From: an uncultured Rikenellaceae bacterium
GTDB taxonomy: Bacteria > Bacteroidota > Bacteroidia > Bacteroidales > VadinHA17
Direction: 5' to 3'
NCBI GenBank assembly: GCA_964526345.1
Contig: CAZGKI010000010.1
Location: forward strand, 19,958 to 83,957
Length of the DNA stretch: 64,000 nucleotides
This document shows positions 19,543 to 31,688 of the stretch, piece after piece. The stretch's first letter is position 1, and each line of letters opens with the position of its first letter. A program made the position numbers and the translations under genes. The notes below the pieces were generated by a model. It made no database searches, was not told where the DNA came from, and saw nothing but the letters and a program-made list of their open reading frames with translations.

Positions 19543-20973
19543 TCACACTTTTAATTTCTTTTCAATTTCATTGATCTGGTTTCTGAAATGCTTGTCTGTA
19601 TCGATAAGGTTGTTTACTGTTTTACAGGCGTGCAAAACAGTTGCATGGTCCTTACCACCGATATGTGATCCGATGCTTGCAAGTGAGGCTTTTGTAAGGC
19701 TTTTGGAAAAATACATTGATACCTGCCGGGCCTGGACTATTTCTCTCTTTCTGGTCTTGCCCTGGATAAGGTCAACAGGTATCTTATAATAATCGCAAAC
19801 GGTTTTCTGGATATAATCAATGGTTATCTCCTTTCTTGCAGTACTTATCAGTTTTTCAACCATCAGTCTGGCAAGATCAAGTGTGATCTCTTTCCTGTTT
19901 AATGTGGATTGGGCGTAAAGTGAAATAAGAACTGCCTCCAGTTCCCTGATATTATTTGAAATATTCACGGCAAGAAATTCAAATACTTCTTCCGGCAGTT
20001 CTATTCCATCATTATATGCTTTTTTCTTAAGGATAGCCAGCCGTGTCTCATAATCAGGACGCTGAAGATCGGCCTGCAGTCCCCATTTAAAACGCGAAAG
20101 AAGCCTTTGTTCCAAACCCTGAAGATCAACAGGGGGTTTGTCGCAGGTCAGGATAAGCTGTTTACCTGACTGATGAAGGTGGTTGAAGATATGGAAAAAT
20201 GTGTCCTGTGTTTTTTCCTTGCCGGCAAACTCATGAACATCATCCAGGATAAGCACGTCTATCATCTGGTAGAAATGAAGGAAATCATTCTTGTTGTTGT
20301 TTCTCACAGACTCAACAAACTGCGTCTGAAACTTATTGGCATTAACGTAGAGAACAGTCTTATCAGGATGTTTCTCCTTAACGAGAATACCGATTGCCTG
20401 AGCCAGATGAGTTTTTCCAAGGCCTGAATCGCCATAGATCATAAGCGGGTTAAAAGCTGTGCCTCCTGGATTATTACCTACAGCAATACCTGCTGATCTG
20501 GCAAGTCTGTTACATTCGCCTTCTACATAATTGGTGAAATTATAATCAGGATTCAGTTTTGGATCAAAATGTACTTTCTTTATTCCGGGAATTACAAAAG
20601 GGTTCTTTATTGAAGGCTGGGTAACATCAAAAGGTACCTGTACAGGTCTGTTAATCAGGTCAGTTTTGTTTCTGGAAGGATACCTTACAGTATAAGGCTT
20701 GCCATCAGAATAATTGGCATTTTCCATCACGACGTTATATTCAAGCTTGGCTTCGGTTCCGATCTCACGTCTCAAAGTCTTTCGAAGAATATCAATGTAT
20801 TGTTCCTCCAGATACTCGTAGAAAAAAGGACTGGGCACCTGGATTGTCAGTACATTATTTTCAAGTTTTAATGGGATGATCGGTTCAAACCATGTTTTAT
20901 AGCTGATGGATGGTATAATATCTTTGATTATCTGGAGACAGTTATTCCATACGTCATGATGTGTTTTGTTCAT
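19543..20973 (-). CDS. dnaA: Chromosomal replication initiator protein DnaA
   Basis: Walker A 'GDSGLGKTHL', 'LILDDVHEF', and the C-terminal DNA-binding 'IGGKDHATVLHACK'. Confidence 0.95.
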   Translation of the reverse strand: MNKTHHDVWNNCLQIIKDIIPSISYKTWFEPIIPLKLENNVLTIQVPSPFFYEYLEEQYIDILRKTLRREIGTEAKLEYNVVMENANYSDGKPYTVRYPSRNKTDLINRPVQVPFDVTQPSIKNPFVIPGIKKVHFDPKLNPDYNFTNYVEGECNRLARSAGIAVGNNPGGTAFNPLMIYGDSGLGKTHLAQAIGILVKEKHPDKTVLYVNANKFQTQFVESVRNNNKNDFLHFYQMIDVLILDDVHEFAGKEKTQDTFFHIFNHLHQSGKQLILTCDKPPVDLQGLEQRLLSRFKWGLQADLQRPDYETRLAILKKKAYNDGIELPEEVFEFLAVNISNNIRELEAVLISLYAQSTLNRKEITLDLARLMVEKLISTARKEITIDYIQKTVCDYYKIPVDLIQGKTRKREIVQARQVSMYFSKSLTKASLASIGSHIGGKDHATVLHACKTVNNLIDTDKHFRNQINEIEKKLKV

Positions 20974-21319
20974 TTAGGTTTGTTATTTTTATTTTTAAGG
21001 TCAGGATATAACTGATTTGACTAGCAATATTTGTAAAAAAAAAACTTAAAAAAAAAATTTTTTTTACTTGATTTTTTCAAAAAAAGTATATGTTTTTAAT
21101 CATCAGCAACTTATGGAATGATTTTTTTTTAAATGATTCAAGTTGGTGAATTATAATGAATTACAATTAACTGATTTGGTTTGTCAGTGTATTACAACTC
21201 ATTATGAACTCTTACTCAAAAATCAACAATTTTGATCTAAAACGAGTATTATTTTGACGTTAGTTTTATAAAATTTTTCAAGTTCAAGATAATCTGAATT
21301 TTAGAAATTCAGATCATTT
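20974..21319. other. Very AT-rich intergenic region upstream of dnaA; candidate replication-origin/DNA-unwinding region
   Basis: A 346-bp ORF-free gap with A10, A10T8, A7 and T9 homopolymer runs, and a direct repeat 'aactgatttg' x2. I found no DnaA box within 2 mismatches of TTATCCACA by eye. Confidence 0.3.
21293..21313 (-). terminator. Hairpin immediately downstream of the MCE/MlaD gene
   Basis: A perfect 9-bp stem TCTGAATTT / AAATTCAGA with a 3-nt loop, 6 nt after the stop codon. The U-tract is weak and the stem AT-rich. Confidence 0.4.
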
Positions 21320-22267
21320 TTATTGATTATTTTTCTTGCCAAAGAGAGAAAAGTGAACATATCTTTTCGGATTGGTTTTCATGTCCTGAAGAAGCAGGTT
21401 AAGATTTGCAAGACTGTTGTTAAGATTTATATAAAGTGAGTCGTTTGTAAATAATTGTCCGGCACTTCCTTTTCCGTTGTTCAGGTTATCAATCAGGGAG
21501 GATGCTTTTTCCAGGCTTTTCTTCAGGTTTAATACGGAAGTGTAAATATCTGCTGCTGCCAGAGTATCGGTTATCGACTCCAGATTACTGATAGTACTGC
21601 TCATTTTTTCCGTATTATCAGAAAGCATCCGGGAGAATTTTGAAATATTTTCAAGGGTTGCCTTAAGATCTTTTTCCTTTGATCCGATAATGTTGTCAAT
21701 GCTTTCCGAAGTGCTGTTCAGGTTAGCCATAGTACCCTGCAGGTTTTTCCTGAATTCAGGATCCATTATTTCGTTTAATGAGGAGATTGTTGAATCAAGT
21801 ACATTTATCAGGGAAATCATTTTCTCTTTTATCGGATGCAACTCAGTTTCAACAATATTCAGGAGCGATTCAGCAAGCCTTCCCGGGATGGTATCTCCCG
21901 GCGAATAAAATCCCGGACCATTGCCATATACGAATTGCACCTTCATACCGGCAATAATTGAAACAGGAGTAATCTCCGCAACAGTATTTTCTGGAAGCTT
22001 GAAACCTTTGCTTACAGAAAAAACAACAAGCAACTTACCTGAGGTCTCATTAAGAAAATCTATCGACTGCACCACTCCAACCTTGTAGCCGTTAATTTCA
22101 ACAGGGCTGGATTCTGCAAGTCCGCCAACATTATCATAAACTGAATAGTAATATCCTGTACTCTTAAAATATTCTTTACCTTTTAAAAAATTATAAAGCC
22201 AAATAAATACGAGGATAGTAACTATTGCCACTGCTCCAACCTTAACTTCATTTGAGAGTTTTATCAT
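21320..22267 (-). CDS. MCE/MlaD-family protein
   Basis: N-terminal TM segment and Mce domain ('VGGLAESSPVEINGYKVGVVQSI'), followed by a long coiled C-terminal region. Confidence 0.75.
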   Translation of the reverse strand: MIKLSNEVKVGAVAIVTILVFIWLYNFLKGKEYFKSTGYYYSVYDNVGGLAESSPVEINGYKVGVVQSIDFLNETSGKLLVVFSVSKGFKLPENTVAEITPVSIIAGMKVQFVYGNGPGFYSPGDTIPGRLAESLLNIVETELHPIKEKMISLINVLDSTISSLNEIMDPEFRKNLQGTMANLNSTSESIDNIIGSKEKDLKATLENISKFSRMLSDNTEKMSSTISNLESITDTLAAADIYTSVLNLKKSLEKASSLIDNLNNGKGSAGQLFTNDSLYINLNNSLANLNLLLQDMKTNPKRYVHFSLFGKKNNQ

Positions 22268-27936: not shown

Positions 27937-27960
27937 TATCTTTGTTTTGCAATAACTTTG
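27937..27960 (+). promoter_or_regulatory. Two tandem -7-type boxes (TATCTTTG 27937-27944; TAACTTTG 27953-27960) upstream of dnaX
   Basis: Both match TAnnTTTG exactly, 37 and 21 nt upstream of the ATG at 27981. Confidence 0.45.
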
Positions 27961-27980: not shown

Positions 27981-29720
27981 ATGGAAAACTTCATAGTATC
28001 AGCAAGAAAATACAGACCTGCCACTTTCGACATGGTTGTCGGCCAGGATACAATTACAAATACACTCAAGAATGCCATTAAAAACAATCATCTGACCCAA
28101 TCTTATCTGTTTTGCGGACCCAGGGGGGTGGGTAAGACGACATGTGCCAGGATTTTTGCCAAGACCATAAATTGCAGTAATCTGAAAGAAAATGGAGAAG
28201 CGTGTGATAAGTGCGAATCATGTATCTCTTTTAATACGCTCAGGTCGTTTAATATTCATGAGCTTGATGCAGCCTCCAACAATAAAGTTGAAGATATCAG
28301 AAGCCTGAACGACCAGATAAGGATACCACCTCAGATTGGTAGATACAGCATATACATTATTGATGAGGTTCATATGCTCTCATCCTCTGCATTCAATGCT
28401 TTCCTGAAGACACTTGAAGAACCTCCTTCGCATGCTATCTTCATCCTGGCAACTACTGAAAAGCATAAGATCATTCCTACAATATTGTCGCGTTGCCAGA
28501 TTTTTGATTTCAACAGGATCAGGGTAGAGGATATGGTAGGCAGACTGACATATGTTGCAAAGAACGAGGCAGTAACAGCTGAGGAGGAAGCTCTGCATAT
28601 TATTGCCCAGAAAGCTGATGGAGCTCTCAGGGACGCTTTGTCGATTTTTGACCAGATAGTTAGTCTGTGCGGAAAAAATGTAACTTACCAAGATGTAATA
28701 GCTAACCTGAATGTTCTGGACTATGAATATTATTTTAAAAGTGTTGACGGAGCTCTGGAAGGAGATGTATCAACAGTTTTACTCACTTTTAACGAAATAC
28801 TGGAAAAGGGATTTGATGGTCATAACTTTGTCTCGGGTTTGAACAGCCATTTGCGCGACCTTCTTGTCAGCAAGGATGAATCAACATTGAGGCTTCTGGA
28901 GACAACACCGGCTGTAAGACAGCGATACCTGATACAGTCTTCCAACTGTCCGGTCGAATTTCTTTACAAGGCCCTGGAAGCAGGAAGCAACTGCGATATC
29001 TCATACAAAATCAGTAAGAATCCCCGGCTGCATGTTGAACTATTCCTGATCCGTATGTGCCGTCTTTCAGATGAACCTTCTGAGGAGGCAGAAAAAAAAA
29101 AGTTACAGCTGAATAAAAGCGAAAAAGAACTCAAGCTGCCATCAAAATCTGAGATAATACGTGAATCTGAGGAACCTGTTAAAAATATGGCAGGAAGTGA
29201 AGAGAAGACTTCCAGCCATATGCCGGTAATTGAAAAACCTGCCAGGACTTTTTCAATTAAGGAGATTATTTCAGAAACCATGGAGCCGGAAACAAAAGTA
29301 TCTTCAACCGTTGAAAGTCAAAATGACATCGATGCAGAATTTCCCGGGAACAAATTAGACTTCACTCCCGGAAATATTTCTTCTGTCTGGATGGAATTCA
29401 TCAAAACGCTCAGCAGCGAAGGTCCCAGAATAGTTAGCATGTTTAAATCAATAGTACCTGAGATGGAAGATGAGCATACCTTAAAGGTACATTTAAGCAA
29501 CGCTGCACAAAAAGATCTATTCATCCAGAATTATAAACAGAGGCTTTTAAATTATTTGGGTGACAAATTTGCCGATCCCGAACTCGAAATTGAAACAATT
29601 GTGGATCTGTCAGATACAAATGATTTACTTTATACCGATGAACAAAAGTATAACTACCTTCAAAAAAAATATCCTGTTTTGAAAGATTTTAAAAAAACAT
29701 TTAACCTTGATATTACTTGA
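27981..29720 (+). CDS. dnaX: DNA polymerase III subunit tau (gamma/tau)
   Basis: 'ARKYRPATFDMVVGQ', Walker A 'GPRGVGKTT', Zn module 'CSNLKENGEACDKCESC', 'IIDEVHML' and sensor 'TILSRCQIFDF'. Confidence 0.9.
   Translation: MENFIVSARKYRPATFDMVVGQDTITNTLKNAIKNNHLTQSYLFCGPRGVGKTTCARIFAKTINCSNLKENGEACDKCESCISFNTLRSFNIHELDAASNNKVEDIRSLNDQIRIPPQIGRYSIYIIDEVHMLSSSAFNAFLKTLEEPPSHAIFILATTEKHKIIPTILSRCQIFDFNRIRVEDMVGRLTYVAKNEAVTAEEEALHIIAQKADGALRDALSIFDQIVSLCGKNVTYQDVIANLNVLDYEYYFKSVDGALEGDVSTVLLTFNEILEKGFDGHNFVSGLNSHLRDLLVSKDESTLRLLETTPAVRQRYLIQSSNCPVEFLYKALEAGSNCDISYKISKNPRLHVELFLIRMCRLSDEPSEEAEKKKLQLNKSEKELKLPSKSEIIRESEEPVKNMAGSEEKTSSHMPVIEKPARTFSIKEIISETMEPETKVSSTVESQNDIDAEFPGNKLDFTPGNISSVWMEFIKTLSSEGPRIVSMFKSIVPEMEDEHTLKVHLSNAAQKDLFIQNYKQRLLNYLGDKFADPELEIETIVDLSDTNDLLYTDEQKYNYLQKKYPVLKDFKKTFNLDIT
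29092..29116 (+). other. Candidate recoding site in dnaX: A10 run containing an in-phase A_AAA_AAG heptamer, followed by stops in both alternative frames
   Basis: Zero frame is GAA AAA AAA AAG TTA. The -1 frame reads GTT ACA GCT GAA TAA. The +1 frame reads AGT TAC AGC TGA. See findings. Confidence 0.4.
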
Positions 29721-29765: not shown

Positions 29766-31688
29766 GTGAAGCAGAACACTGCAAGACATTCTGGTGATGA
29801 TGATCTAAACTTTCTGAAAAGAGAAAAATATTTTTCTGATCATATTATAGACCATTCCAGGTCTATGATTAGCATTATAAACCGTGATTATGTTTATGAA
29901 AAAGTTAACTCTTCTTTCTGCAATGCTCATAAAGAAGTAACTGACTCAATCGTTGGAAAAACACTCGGGGATGTATGGGGTCATGAGATATTCGTTACAA
30001 AGATCAAGCATAATATCGACAAATGTTTTTCTGGTGCCACAGTCAGGTATGAAGCATCATTTACAACACCCCGGTCGGGTGTAAGGTTTTATGAAGTGAT
30101 CTTCCGTCCCTTCCCGGTGGAATCGGGCGAGATAACACATCTGCTTGCTGAAACCTTTGATATAACTGATCTTAAGTTATCGGAAAAAATAGCAACCGAA
30201 AAAGAGGAGGAATTCAGGAAGTTTGAAACAAACCTGCCCATTGGCTTCATAAGATGTCAGCCTGATGGTACAATAATCCATGTTAATAAATCTTTTGTTT
30301 TAATCCTTGATTGTGAAAAGGAAGATGCAATTTGCTTTAGAAACCTCAGGAGTTATTACGTAGAGGAGAGGATTTTCGAAATGCATATTGAGCAGCTCCT
30401 TGGTGGAAAACCTAAATATTTTGGCAGGGTTCCGCTAAAGACCTGCAGGGGCAATGAGATTGTGTGTAGAATAAGTGGATTCATGACTGTTAACGATCCT
30501 GAAATCCCCTCTTATATAGATTTTGCTATTGAGGACTCATCGCGTGAGCTGATGCTGGAAAACCGTCTTCTGGAAGCACAGAAGCTTGAAACCATTGGAG
30601 CTCTTGCAGGAGGCATAGCTCACGATTTTAATAATATACTTACCACTATATCAGGTTATTCTGAATTATTACAGGACGATCTTCCGAAATCTTCTCCATC
30701 GGCCCAGAAAGTCGCAAAGATAAGGATGGCTGTTTCCAAAGCCAGGTCGCTTACAAACCAGATACTTACATTCAGCAGACAGATGGAGCAGGAAAAAGTA
30801 TCTGTAAATGTATATGATGTTCTTAAAGAGACTATAGGCTTCGTTAAATCTTCAGTACCTTCAAACATCAGTGTAAGGAGCAACTTCAGGAGGATCGAAG
30901 CACCGGTTTATGCTGACCCGACACAGCTCTTCAGGGTGTTCCTGAACCTGATCACCAATGCTGTACAGTCCCTGGAAAACAGGAAAGGCACTATTTTTAT
31001 TAATATGGAAGTAGTGGAAGGGAGAAATGTACAAAACGAAATGAACAAAAATATTGTTGCAGATGAATATGTACAGATAACTTTCAGGGATACAGGAAAA
31101 GGTATGGACCAATCATTGATGAGGAGAATATTTGAACCTTTCTTCACTACCCGGGAAGTTGGAAAGGGATCAGGGCTGGGTTTATCAGTTGTTCATGGCA
31201 TTGTATCAGAAATAGGAGGAGAGATACTCGTTTCAAGTGAAAAAGACAAAGGATCATCTTTTTACATTTATCTTCCTGTCTCAAGGGAAACCATTAACGG
31301 GACGGGCAAGAGTGGCAGGAGAAAAAAGATTTTGTTTATAACAGGTAACAGGCATGAATCACGAATATTATCACTGGCATTAAATAACACAGGTTATGAA
31401 ATGATACAGTCATGCGAACCCGTGCATTTTAATAAGGTTTTAACTGATCCAAAGCAAAAGCCTGATCTTGTTATATATATGAGCGATTCGGAATTAATAA
31501 AGGCCGAAGACCTACTTGTAGCTTTTAAGAACTCCGAAATAAATATACCCTGCATCCTTGTAACTGATTCAAATGTCGGTTTAATGGAAGAAAAATTATT
31601 AAATTCGGGGATTATTAAACAGCATCTGATAAAACCGGTTTCACTTAAGGAAATAAAAAACGCAATACAATTGTCTATTAACAGTTAA
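29766..31688 (+). CDS. PAS-domain sensor histidine kinase with a C-terminal degenerate receiver-like domain
   Basis: H-box 'GGIAHDFNNILT', N-box 'FLNLITNAVQS', G1 'RDTGKGM' and G2 'GKGSGLGLSVV'. The C-terminal ~125 aa are REC-like but read 'ILFITGN' where the acidic pair is expected. GTG start. Confidence 0.85.
   Translation: MKQNTARHSGDDDLNFLKREKYFSDHIIDHSRSMISIINRDYVYEKVNSSFCNAHKEVTDSIVGKTLGDVWGHEIFVTKIKHNIDKCFSGATVRYEASFTTPRSGVRFYEVIFRPFPVESGEITHLLAETFDITDLKLSEKIATEKEEEFRKFETNLPIGFIRCQPDGTIIHVNKSFVLILDCEKEDAICFRNLRSYYVEERIFEMHIEQLLGGKPKYFGRVPLKTCRGNEIVCRISGFMTVNDPEIPSYIDFAIEDSSRELMLENRLLEAQKLETIGALAGGIAHDFNNILTTISGYSELLQDDLPKSSPSAQKVAKIRMAVSKARSLTNQILTFSRQMEQEKVSVNVYDVLKETIGFVKSSVPSNISVRSNFRRIEAPVYADPTQLFRVFLNLITNAVQSLENRKGTIFINMEVVEGRNVQNEMNKNIVADEYVQITFRDTGKGMDQSLMRRIFEPFFTTREVGKGSGLGLSVVHGIVSEIGGEILVSSEKDKGSSFYIYLPVSRETINGTGKSGRRKKILFITGNRHESRILSLALNNTGYEMIQSCEPVHFNKVLTDPKQKPDLVIYMSDSELIKAEDLLVAFKNSEINIPCILVTDSNVGLMEEKLLNSGIIKQHLIKPVSLKEIKNAIQLSINS

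Follow-up and report, generated by a model that had tools for sequence, protein, structure and literature searches.

The dnaX gene of an uncultured Rikenellaceae bacterium contains, where the clamp-loader core of its product ends, a run of ten adenines (A10) that is probably, at a rough probability of 0.6, a site of programmed transcriptional slippage like that of Thermus thermophilus dnaX. The gene lies in a stretch of 64,000 nucleotides (nt) of DNA (GCA_964526345.1, CAZGKI010000010.1, positions 19,958-83,957, forward strand), here called the window. On comparative sequence evidence, dnaX has a conserved site of recoding, kept by selection, at its domain III boundary. Slippage of the Thermus type is favoured because the run has the length of the RNA-DNA hybrid, which is 9-10 bp (PMC5009743), because it is kept irrespective of codon phase and of the base that follows it, because the off-frames close shortly behind it, because tau is found in all three frames among related genes, and because no structure is found on the 3' side of the run while a hairpin is predicted on the 5' side. 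Transcriptional slippage had been the second option of a first-pass annotation of the window, and the comparative data now place it first.

In the proposed mechanism, RNA polymerase on the T10 of the template strand would hold a hybrid consisting entirely of rA:dT pairs and would realign by at least one position, giving mRNAs with A9, A10, A11, A12 and further lengths. Messages with A10 (also those with A7 or A13) would yield tau, 579 amino acids, by ordinary translation. All other lengths would lead to the TAA at 29114 or the TGA at 29110 and to a gamma-like protein of 376-378 amino acids, about 42 kDa, that ends past domain III; because stops are near in both alternative frames, any change of length that is not a multiple of three would give gamma. 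The hairpin at 29058-29090 probably forms in the nascent RNA while the polymerase sits on the run, where it would promote pausing or realignment. Once the polymerase has copied the whole run, 10-13 nt would separate the RNA 3' end from the hairpin's base. This spacing is the geometry of hairpin-stabilised pauses and is near that of terminators.

The A10 run and the frame of tau

The codons at 29091-29105 read GAA AAA AAA AAG TTA (E371 K372 K373 K374 L375, with the G at 29102), and the run is exactly at the end of the clamp-loader core, since domain III ends at residue 374. The predicted product of A9 or A12 transcripts ends in EKKSYS (376 amino acids, 42.4 kDa); A11 or A8 transcripts, like a -1 shift of the ribosome, are predicted to give one that ends in EKKKVTAE (378 amino acids, 42.6 kDa). 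Either shift would yield a gamma-like protein of about 42 kDa without the tau C-terminal domains. The first-pass annotation had read the codons, the run, the heptamer A_AAA_AAG (29096-29102), both off-frame stops and the purine-rich GAGGAGG (29082-29088) correctly, and its placement of the site at the end of the core and its prediction of a gamma-like product from either shift also hold. The predicted proteins of 376 and 378 amino acids have no exact match in a collection of 15 billion proteins, a result that is uninformative, as the full-length protein is itself found on only 8 contigs.

Inside the long open reading frames (ORFs) of the window, the A10 of dnaX is the sole A/T run of at least 9 nt. 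The sequence AAAAAAG was observed 42 times in the window, with 32 expected, and 8 of the sites are in phase within long ORFs. The heptamer alone is no more than chance; the A10 run is beyond chance. The earlier caution that lysine-coding A-runs and off-frame stops are common in AT-rich genomes was right for the heptamer, as was the remark on a weak downstream hairpin, but it does not hold for the A10 run.

EKKK is found at this position, within an otherwise hypervariable linker, in 112 of the 120 best homologues, which are 72-80% identical and come without exception from uncultured Bacteroidales/Bacteroidia. The exceptions are EKKN (4), EKKT, EKKR, EKKM and GKKK. Twelve close relatives were compared at the DNA level, and the run is found at codon 371 and in the same phase in all 12. 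It is A10 in eight of them (GAA AAA AAA AAG or AAT), A9 in the T, R and M variants and A8 in the single GKKK variant. The lysine codons of the run are all AAA, save the last one of EKKK, which is AAG. In these relatives 6-15 nt lie between the run and the end of the -1 stop, and 11-21 nt, in 11 of the 12, between the run and the end of the +1 stop.

At greater distance, 160 dnaX loci among the matches listed from two collection scans (40-70% identity) span Bacteroidales, Flavobacteriales, Sphingobacteriales, Cytophagales, Chitinophagales and Saprospiraceae. An A-run of at least 8 within about 30 codons past the end of domain III is present in 109 of the 160, with lengths of 10 (91 loci), 11 (11), 9 (6) and 13 (1); in the species-representative genome set it is found in 61 of 80. 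Isolates with the run belong to Pedobacter, Hymenobacter, Chitinophaga, Aquimarina, Mariniflexile, Aequorivita and Flavobacterium. Conservation of the run in related Bacteroidota, with stops nearby, had been named in the first-pass annotation as a check, and it was found both in the close relatives and in the wider sample.

The run starts at codon position 0, 1 or 2 in 16, 66 and 27 of the 109 run-bearing loci, and the base on its 3' side is G, C or T in 37, 36 and 36. The in-phase A_AAA_AAG heptamer is present in only 22 of the 109 and is not kept outside the close clade. Only 28 other A/T runs of at least 9 nt were found in 667 kb of DNA from these loci. Given the lysine codon usage of each gene, three AAA codons out of three at each of the 76 non-redundant loci would have a probability of about 10^-47. 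Even dnaX genes of 55-62% G+C that prefer AAG keep the run (L072 elsewhere has 0 AAA and 17 AAG). Judged by these patterns, selection acts on the run at the nucleotide level, whatever the codon phase or the flanking base.

The frame of tau relative to the core was placed with a hidden Markov model (HMM) of the tau C-terminus made from 36 homologues; tblastn with the C-terminus of the query had left 77 loci unassigned. Homology to the tau C-terminus is in frame 0 in 80 loci (window included), in frame -1 in 20 and in frame +1 in four (L013, L040, L069 and L128, which need one A lost or two gained), and the switch is always at the run. In 24 related loci the zero frame closes right past the run and tau continues in another frame. 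These two-ORF layouts include cultured species, e.g. Flavobacterium quisquiliarum (L080). The window gene is not of the two-ORF type, its tau being in frame 0. In the two-ORF species tau, presumed to be needed as it is in E. coli, can be made only by recoding at the A10. No other indirect evidence speaks as strongly for efficient slippage on the run in this phylum.

In frame-0 layouts the distance from the run to the end of the -1 stop has a median of 6 nt and reaches at most 16; for the +1 stop the median is 15 nt and the largest value 44. The two stops are both within 24 nt in 94% of frame-0 loci, compared with 17% of background codon positions in the same genes. In the other layouts it is the zero frame that closes, 3-19 nt past the run. 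Every layout has exactly one frame open and two that close at once, which is the logic of a site that spreads expression over all three frames. Because the output of such a site would mix all three frames, lineages could shift tau among frames 0, -1 and +1 by single-base changes and keep both proteins.

These observations bear on the possibility that no recoding takes place and that the run is a conserved lysine-rich patch or an accident of AT-rich DNA, with off-frame stops nearby by chance. The 39.5% G+C of the window, the eight in-phase AAAAAAG sites in its long ORFs and the frequency of off-frame stops in AT-rich DNA (background medians 23 and 37 nt) agree with it. The exclusive use of AAA in the run (log10 P about -47), also in GC-rich genes that prefer AAG, does not, nor do the rarity of A/T runs of at least 9 nt in the loci and in the long ORFs of the window and the excess of close off-frame stops over background. 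A protein-level explanation is impossible in the 24 relatives in which the zero frame stops past the run and tau is in another frame. Absence of recoding is already strongly disfavoured and has to be regarded as very improbable.

Homopolymers are classic contingency loci, and lengths of 9, 11 and 13 occur among the relatives, as would be expected if the run varied in length during DNA replication and cells were of a tau-only or a gamma-only phase. The dnaX gene is presumably essential, by extension from E. coli and other studied bacteria, and a tau-off state should therefore not be viable. Relatives with A11 or A9 are mostly in frame for tau through compensating context, and the length of 10 is nearly fixed (91 of 109). 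The exact protein of the window, with its frame intact, is found on 8 independent contigs, and truncated forms are not in the protein collection. Phase variation at the DNA level is consequently given hardly any credence.

Folding around the run and competing mechanisms

The hairpin predicted directly upstream of the run in the window (Table 1) has a folding energy of -12.9 kcal/mol (z = -2.06); 7 of 200 dinucleotide shuffles were as stable, and it is more stable than every control window of its own gene. In the 76 non-redundant loci the 30-nt window that ends at the run averages -5.83 kcal/mol, compared with averages of -2.4 to -3.7 kcal/mol at 61 other offsets from -180 to +180, and 6 nt upstream the average is already -3.54 kcal/mol (paired Wilcoxon p = 8e-8, n = 76). 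Relative to dinucleotide shuffles, z is -1.07 at the run, compared with -0.08 and -0.14 at two offsets used as controls (p = 9e-6 and 2e-4). An energy of -6 kcal/mol or lower is reached at 47% of these sites versus 11% of background windows, and in 86 of 110 loci only 0-3 nt separate the 3' end of the hairpin from the run. The stem sequences vary by lineage, CUCUAUCA/UGAUGGAG versus CCCUGA/UCAGGG in Flavobacteriaceae, with a coordinated change from Ile-Asp to Leu-Gln. The argument for the hairpin is one of position-specific folding energy, because covariation is weak and no RNAalifold consensus was obtained. That the hairpin is a nascent-RNA stimulator or pause element for slippage is suggested by these energies and is a serious possibility, a little short of even odds. 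The wider proposal, that hairpin and A10 form a terminator-like slippage cassette that would set the realignment rate, and hence the ratio of tau to gamma, across much of the Bacteroidota, is offered more tentatively.

Mean hairpin energy is -6.1 kcal/mol in frame-0 layouts and -4.8 kcal/mol in -1 layouts (p = 0.2). The hairpins of the four +1 loci are without exception strong (-7.1 to -11.9 kcal/mol) and end 1-2 nt before the run, four loci being too few for a conclusion. They are reminiscent of the deletion-promoting stem-loop of Roseiflexus described below, again in numbers that are too small.

The GAGGAGG stretch could be taken for a Shine-Dalgarno (SD)-like stimulator of ribosomal frameshifting. 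It is better explained as part of the 3' arm of the hairpin, because it pairs within the 29058-29090 fold. None of the 12 close relatives examined has the motif. Within the 20 nt upstream of the run, 13 of the 76 non-redundant loci have an SD-like core, compared with 7% of background windows. Ribosomes of Bacteroidia sequester the anti-SD sequence and do not use SD pairing (PMC7797042), and prfB frameshifting in Flavobacterium johnsoniae runs without SD pairing (PMC10798248). An SD-like element as conserved stimulator was rejected on the counts in relatives.

Downstream of the run, the sequence at 29102-29161 has a folding energy of -4.9 kcal/mol (z = +0.14) and is not more stable than its shuffles. 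The weak hairpin noted there in the first-pass annotation (29106-29110/29134-29138) does occur in the minimum-energy fold, but with these values it is rejected as a stimulator. In the relatives the 45 nt past the run average -5.69 kcal/mol versus -5.93 kcal/mol in controls, and the positional profile is flat. A cmscan search of 28800-29400 with E up to 10 gave no match to the Rfam DnaX frameshifting element, only chance hits to unrelated families.

These results are set against -1 ribosomal frameshifting of the E. coli type, to which the headline of the first-pass annotation points. In that reading, ribosomes that decode AAA AAG would slip back on the heptamer, aided by GAGGAGG, and end at the TAA at 29114-29116 to give gamma. 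The heptamer is the same as in E. coli and is in phase; A10 with AAG or AAT as last codon is kept in 8 of the 12 close relatives, and EKKK in most of the 120 homologues. The -1 stop is near (15 nt here and 6-15 nt in close relatives), and the bare E. coli dnaX heptamer shifts at about 14-16% without stimulators (bioRxiv 10.1101/2025.10.02.679949). However, the heptamer is in phase with its G in only 22 of the 109 run-bearing loci, no downstream stem-loop is found here or in the relatives, the Rfam element gave no match, the GAGGAGG is in none of the 12 close relatives examined, and the ribosomes of Bacteroidia are SD-blind (PMC7797042, PMC10798248). Seven nt suffice for ribosomal frameshifting, yet ten are conserved. 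Tau in four relatives requires a +1-frame shift, the nearby +1-frame stop is conserved as well, and hairpins 5' of a shift site are reported, in the account of PMC6321510, to attenuate -1 frameshifting. As the principal mechanism the E. coli type is unlikely. The heptamer may permit some additional -1 ribosomal frameshifting, with the same product.

The products would also be the same if ribosomes slid on the poly(A) track in either direction with no dedicated stimulators. Sliding would accommodate the overlapping AAA codons that every phase of an A10 provides, the conservation of the two off-frame stops and the existence of -1 as well as +1 layouts of tau. It leaves without explanation the length fixed at 10, which matches the 9-10 bp hybrid (PMC5009743), and the placement of a hairpin on the 5' side. 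In two-ORF species a large share of ribosomes would need to change frame for the presumably essential tau. In Thermus, the best-studied homologue with an A-run, slippage was shown to be transcriptional (PMC1088944). Sliding of ribosomes is likewise unlikely, and is rated slightly below frameshifting of the E. coli type.

Several findings weigh against transcriptional slippage with a stimulatory hairpin. The optimal E. coli heptamer is in phase here and in most of the close clade, and since an A_AAA_AAN heptamer exists in every phase of an A10, variation in phase alone does not exclude translational slippage. The run is missing in about a third of the sampled loci, mostly from gut Bacteroidales, and is therefore dispensable in some lineages; the 160 loci, having been picked for their similarity to the query, do not sample the phylum at random. 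Not every locus has the hairpin: a value of -6 kcal/mol or better is reached at about 47% of the non-redundant loci, and an abutting hairpin is found in only about 4 of 13 sequences of the window gene's own clade (about 3 of the 12 close relatives). With a fixed 8-bp geometry in Flavobacteriaceae, 83% of positions are paired versus 78% in shuffles, with two double-change pairs, which is not significant, and RNAalifold gave no consensus structure for 22 Flavobacteriaceae upstream regions. The literature searched gave no experimental study of dnaX recoding in Bacteroidota. The anatomy of the site, its conservation, the three layouts, the statistics of the off-frame stops, the lack of 3' structure and the positional enrichment of the 5' hairpin are what the sequences show. 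With these points taken into account, we infer from the sequences that slippage occurs, that it does so at the level of RNA polymerase, that gamma is made and that the hairpin contributes.

Loci that depart from the common arrangement are of three kinds. About 45 evaluable run-less loci (L017, L026, L029, L037, L058, L083-L085, L089-L095, L098-L100 and others) have linkers rich in Pro, Ala and Gln; labels among the run-less loci, which are from gut-associated Bacteroidales, include Bacteroidaceae, Muribaculaceae and some Rikenellaceae. Run-less gut Bacteroidales either make tau only or obtain gamma by another route such as proteolysis, which is described for Caulobacter (PMC5009743). In L053, L067, L130 and L148 the zero frame stops soon past domain III, and no A-run of at least 8 is present there; an A7 follows in L148 after about another 250 nt, and three of the four have C-terminal homology in some frame. 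These four could have a different recoding signal or be assembly errors. In L014 (about position 2861) and L146 (about 2844) an A10/A11 run is found about 270 nt further downstream, after a longer linker, which suggests that the slippage site can move relative to domain III.

The dnaX gene and its surroundings

The gene was identified as dnaX by the NCBIfam equivalog PRK14971 (767.6 bits, cut-off 685). The Pfam domains of its product are DNA_pol3_delta2, the ATPase lid and DNA_pol3_gamma3, and the domain that sets the end of the core is PF12169 (domain III). Residues 4-358 align to the E. coli gamma core (373 residues; PDB 1JR3/1XXH) over its residues 3-355, and the C-terminus of tau is conserved in homologues (36 aligned). 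A mechanical ORF call begins at the TTG at 27942. The ATG at 27981 is supported as the true start by M1, N3 and F4, which are invariant in the 36 aligned homologues.

Table 1. Coordinates of dnaX and of the elements around its A10 run, numbered from the first nucleotide of the window
Feature	Position	Strand	Basis or remark
dnaX coding sequence, full-length tau	27981-29720	+	zero-frame ORF; 579 amino acids, 65.7 kDa
Clamp-loader core, domains I-III, codons 1-370, common to tau and predicted gamma	27981-29090	+	Pfam, PDB alignment
Predicted RNA hairpin, 12 bp, two single-base bulges, 7-nt loop 29072-29078	29058-29090	+	ends 1 nt before the run
Hairpin 3' arm UCUGAGGAGGCA, contains GAGGAGG	29079-29090	+	predicted fold
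GAGGAGG purine-rich stretch	29082-29088	+	7 nt upstream of the heptamer; paired inside the predicted hairpin
A10 homopolymer (template strand T10), proposed slippage site	29092-29101	+	sequence; codons 371-374
In-phase A_AAA_AAG heptamer	29096-29102	+	phase checked from ATG 27981
Tau-only region: variable linker and conserved C-terminal domain; not in predicted gamma	29103-29720	+	homologue alignment, HMM
TGA, +1-frame stop (AGT TAC AGC TGA)	29110-29112	+	ends 11 nt past the run
TAA, -1-frame stop (GTT ACA GCT GAA TAA)	29114-29116	+	ends 15 nt past the run

Upstream of dnaX is a divergent rpsF-rpsR-rplI cluster (S6, S18, L9; 26682-27806, minus strand), and downstream a PAS/HisKA/HATPase sensor kinase (29766-31688, plus strand). 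The neighbourhood is conserved, since the S6 gene is found upstream in 11 of the 12 close relatives and kinase domains downstream in 7. The only other homopolymers of at least 9 nt in the window are in an AT-rich intergenic stretch at 21035-21130, between minus-strand ORFs at 19543-20973 and 21320-22267. This stretch contains two A10 (21035-21044 and 21048-21057), a T8 and a T9, and is probably a promoter or leader region. No tRNA genes were found in the 64-kb window.

Comparison with known systems

The kind of site described here is already known, from slippage in Thermus dnaX and from the realignment predicted at A10 in two-ORF dnaX genes of Bacteroidetes and Chlorobi. What appears to be undescribed in the literature searched is the breadth of the in-frame version in the sampled Bacteroidota, the +1 layout and the upstream hairpin. 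A look-alike of the textbook E. coli frameshift site is reassigned to a different mechanism. An A10 predicted to generate tau and gamma is widespread in the dnaX genes of the sampled Bacteroidota and is not limited to a few two-ORF genomes; by this breadth, gamma would therefore be under selection well beyond Proteobacteria and Thermus. Annotation pipelines label such genes as plain tau or as broken, and knowledge of the site corrects both. The upstream hairpin is a testable handle on how the slippage efficiency of bacterial RNA polymerase is tuned. If it does act on the run, stem-loop-assisted transcriptional slippage would for the first time be seen outside mobile elements, and a phylum with ribosomes unable to use frameshift stimulators of the SD type would have a recoding signal that suits it.

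The site shares with the E. coli cassette the heptamer and its phase, an upstream purine-rich GGAGG stretch, a near -1 stop and the outcome, gamma plus tau, that is predicted here. It differs in that there is no 3' stem-loop or Rfam match, the heptamer and the SD-like element are not conserved among relatives, the host ribosomes work without SD pairing, and the site is near codon 371, where domain III ends, as against about codon 430 in E. coli.

In the Roseiflexus IS630 element a stem-loop 5'-adjacent to the motif stimulates slippage of RNA polymerase, and it is proposed to melt the upstream hybrid and so favour realignment (Penno 2015, as reported in PMC5009743). As far as that report describes it, the window site resembles the IS630 site in having a stable predicted hairpin directly 5' of the motif, in a terminator-like geometry of hairpin followed by weak hybrid. 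The Roseiflexus motif is a heteropolymeric T5C5 in a transposase gene, reported with one-base deletion only. The window site, situated in a core replication gene, has a homopolymer as its motif, on which slippage both ways would be possible and may depend on the hairpin. Relatives of the window gene need an insertion-type or a deletion-type frame change for tau, unlike a unidirectional deletion.

The closest predictions within the phylum are those for two-ORF dnaX genes with A10 in Flavobacterium johnsoniae, F. psychrophilum, Cytophaga hutchinsonii, four Chlorobi and Coraliomargarita; the run of Capnocytophaga is printed there as nine A (Antonov et al. 2013, PMC3711429). The runs were aligned in that study with the A9 of Thermus, and transcriptional realignment was predicted (PMC3711429). 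In the passages on dnaX the length, position, phylum and predicted mechanism are like those found here, and the 20 loci with tau in frame -1 reproduce the layout, which was termed a novel organisation there. There tau needs recoding, whereas in the window gamma needs recoding and tau is in the zero frame. The study searched for frameshifts at the DNA level, so that in-frame cases were invisible to it. Its dnaX passages give only -1 layouts and mention no upstream hairpin; four +1 loci are added here.

In Thermus dnaX, slippage on an A9 gives transcripts of mixed A-lengths and about 50% gamma (Larsen et al. 2000), according to the accounts in PMC1088944 and PMC5009743. The window site agrees with it in the gene, in the boundary just past the clamp-loader core, in having the A-run on the sense strand, and in a tau encoded by a single ORF with nearby stops in both alternative frames. 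The Thermus site is printed as A9-GCCTGA (PMC3711429, Suppl. Fig. S3), and several relatives of the window gene likewise have an A-run followed by GCCTGA. In many relatives (among them L162-L170 and L172) the run is followed by [G/T/C]CCTGA or a similar sequence, which places a -1-frame TGA 6 nt past the run and forces the zero frame to a T-ending codon and then Asp or Glu. The stop context shared with Thermus is either convergent or an ancestral conservation. The differences are that the run is A10 here and A9 in Thermus, that the phyla are not the same, that a hairpin abuts the run on the 5' side here and none is mentioned for Thermus in review accounts, and that slippage has been demonstrated in Thermus and is predicted here. 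On its sequence features the window gene is a further member of this group, with the single-ORF layout of Thermus.

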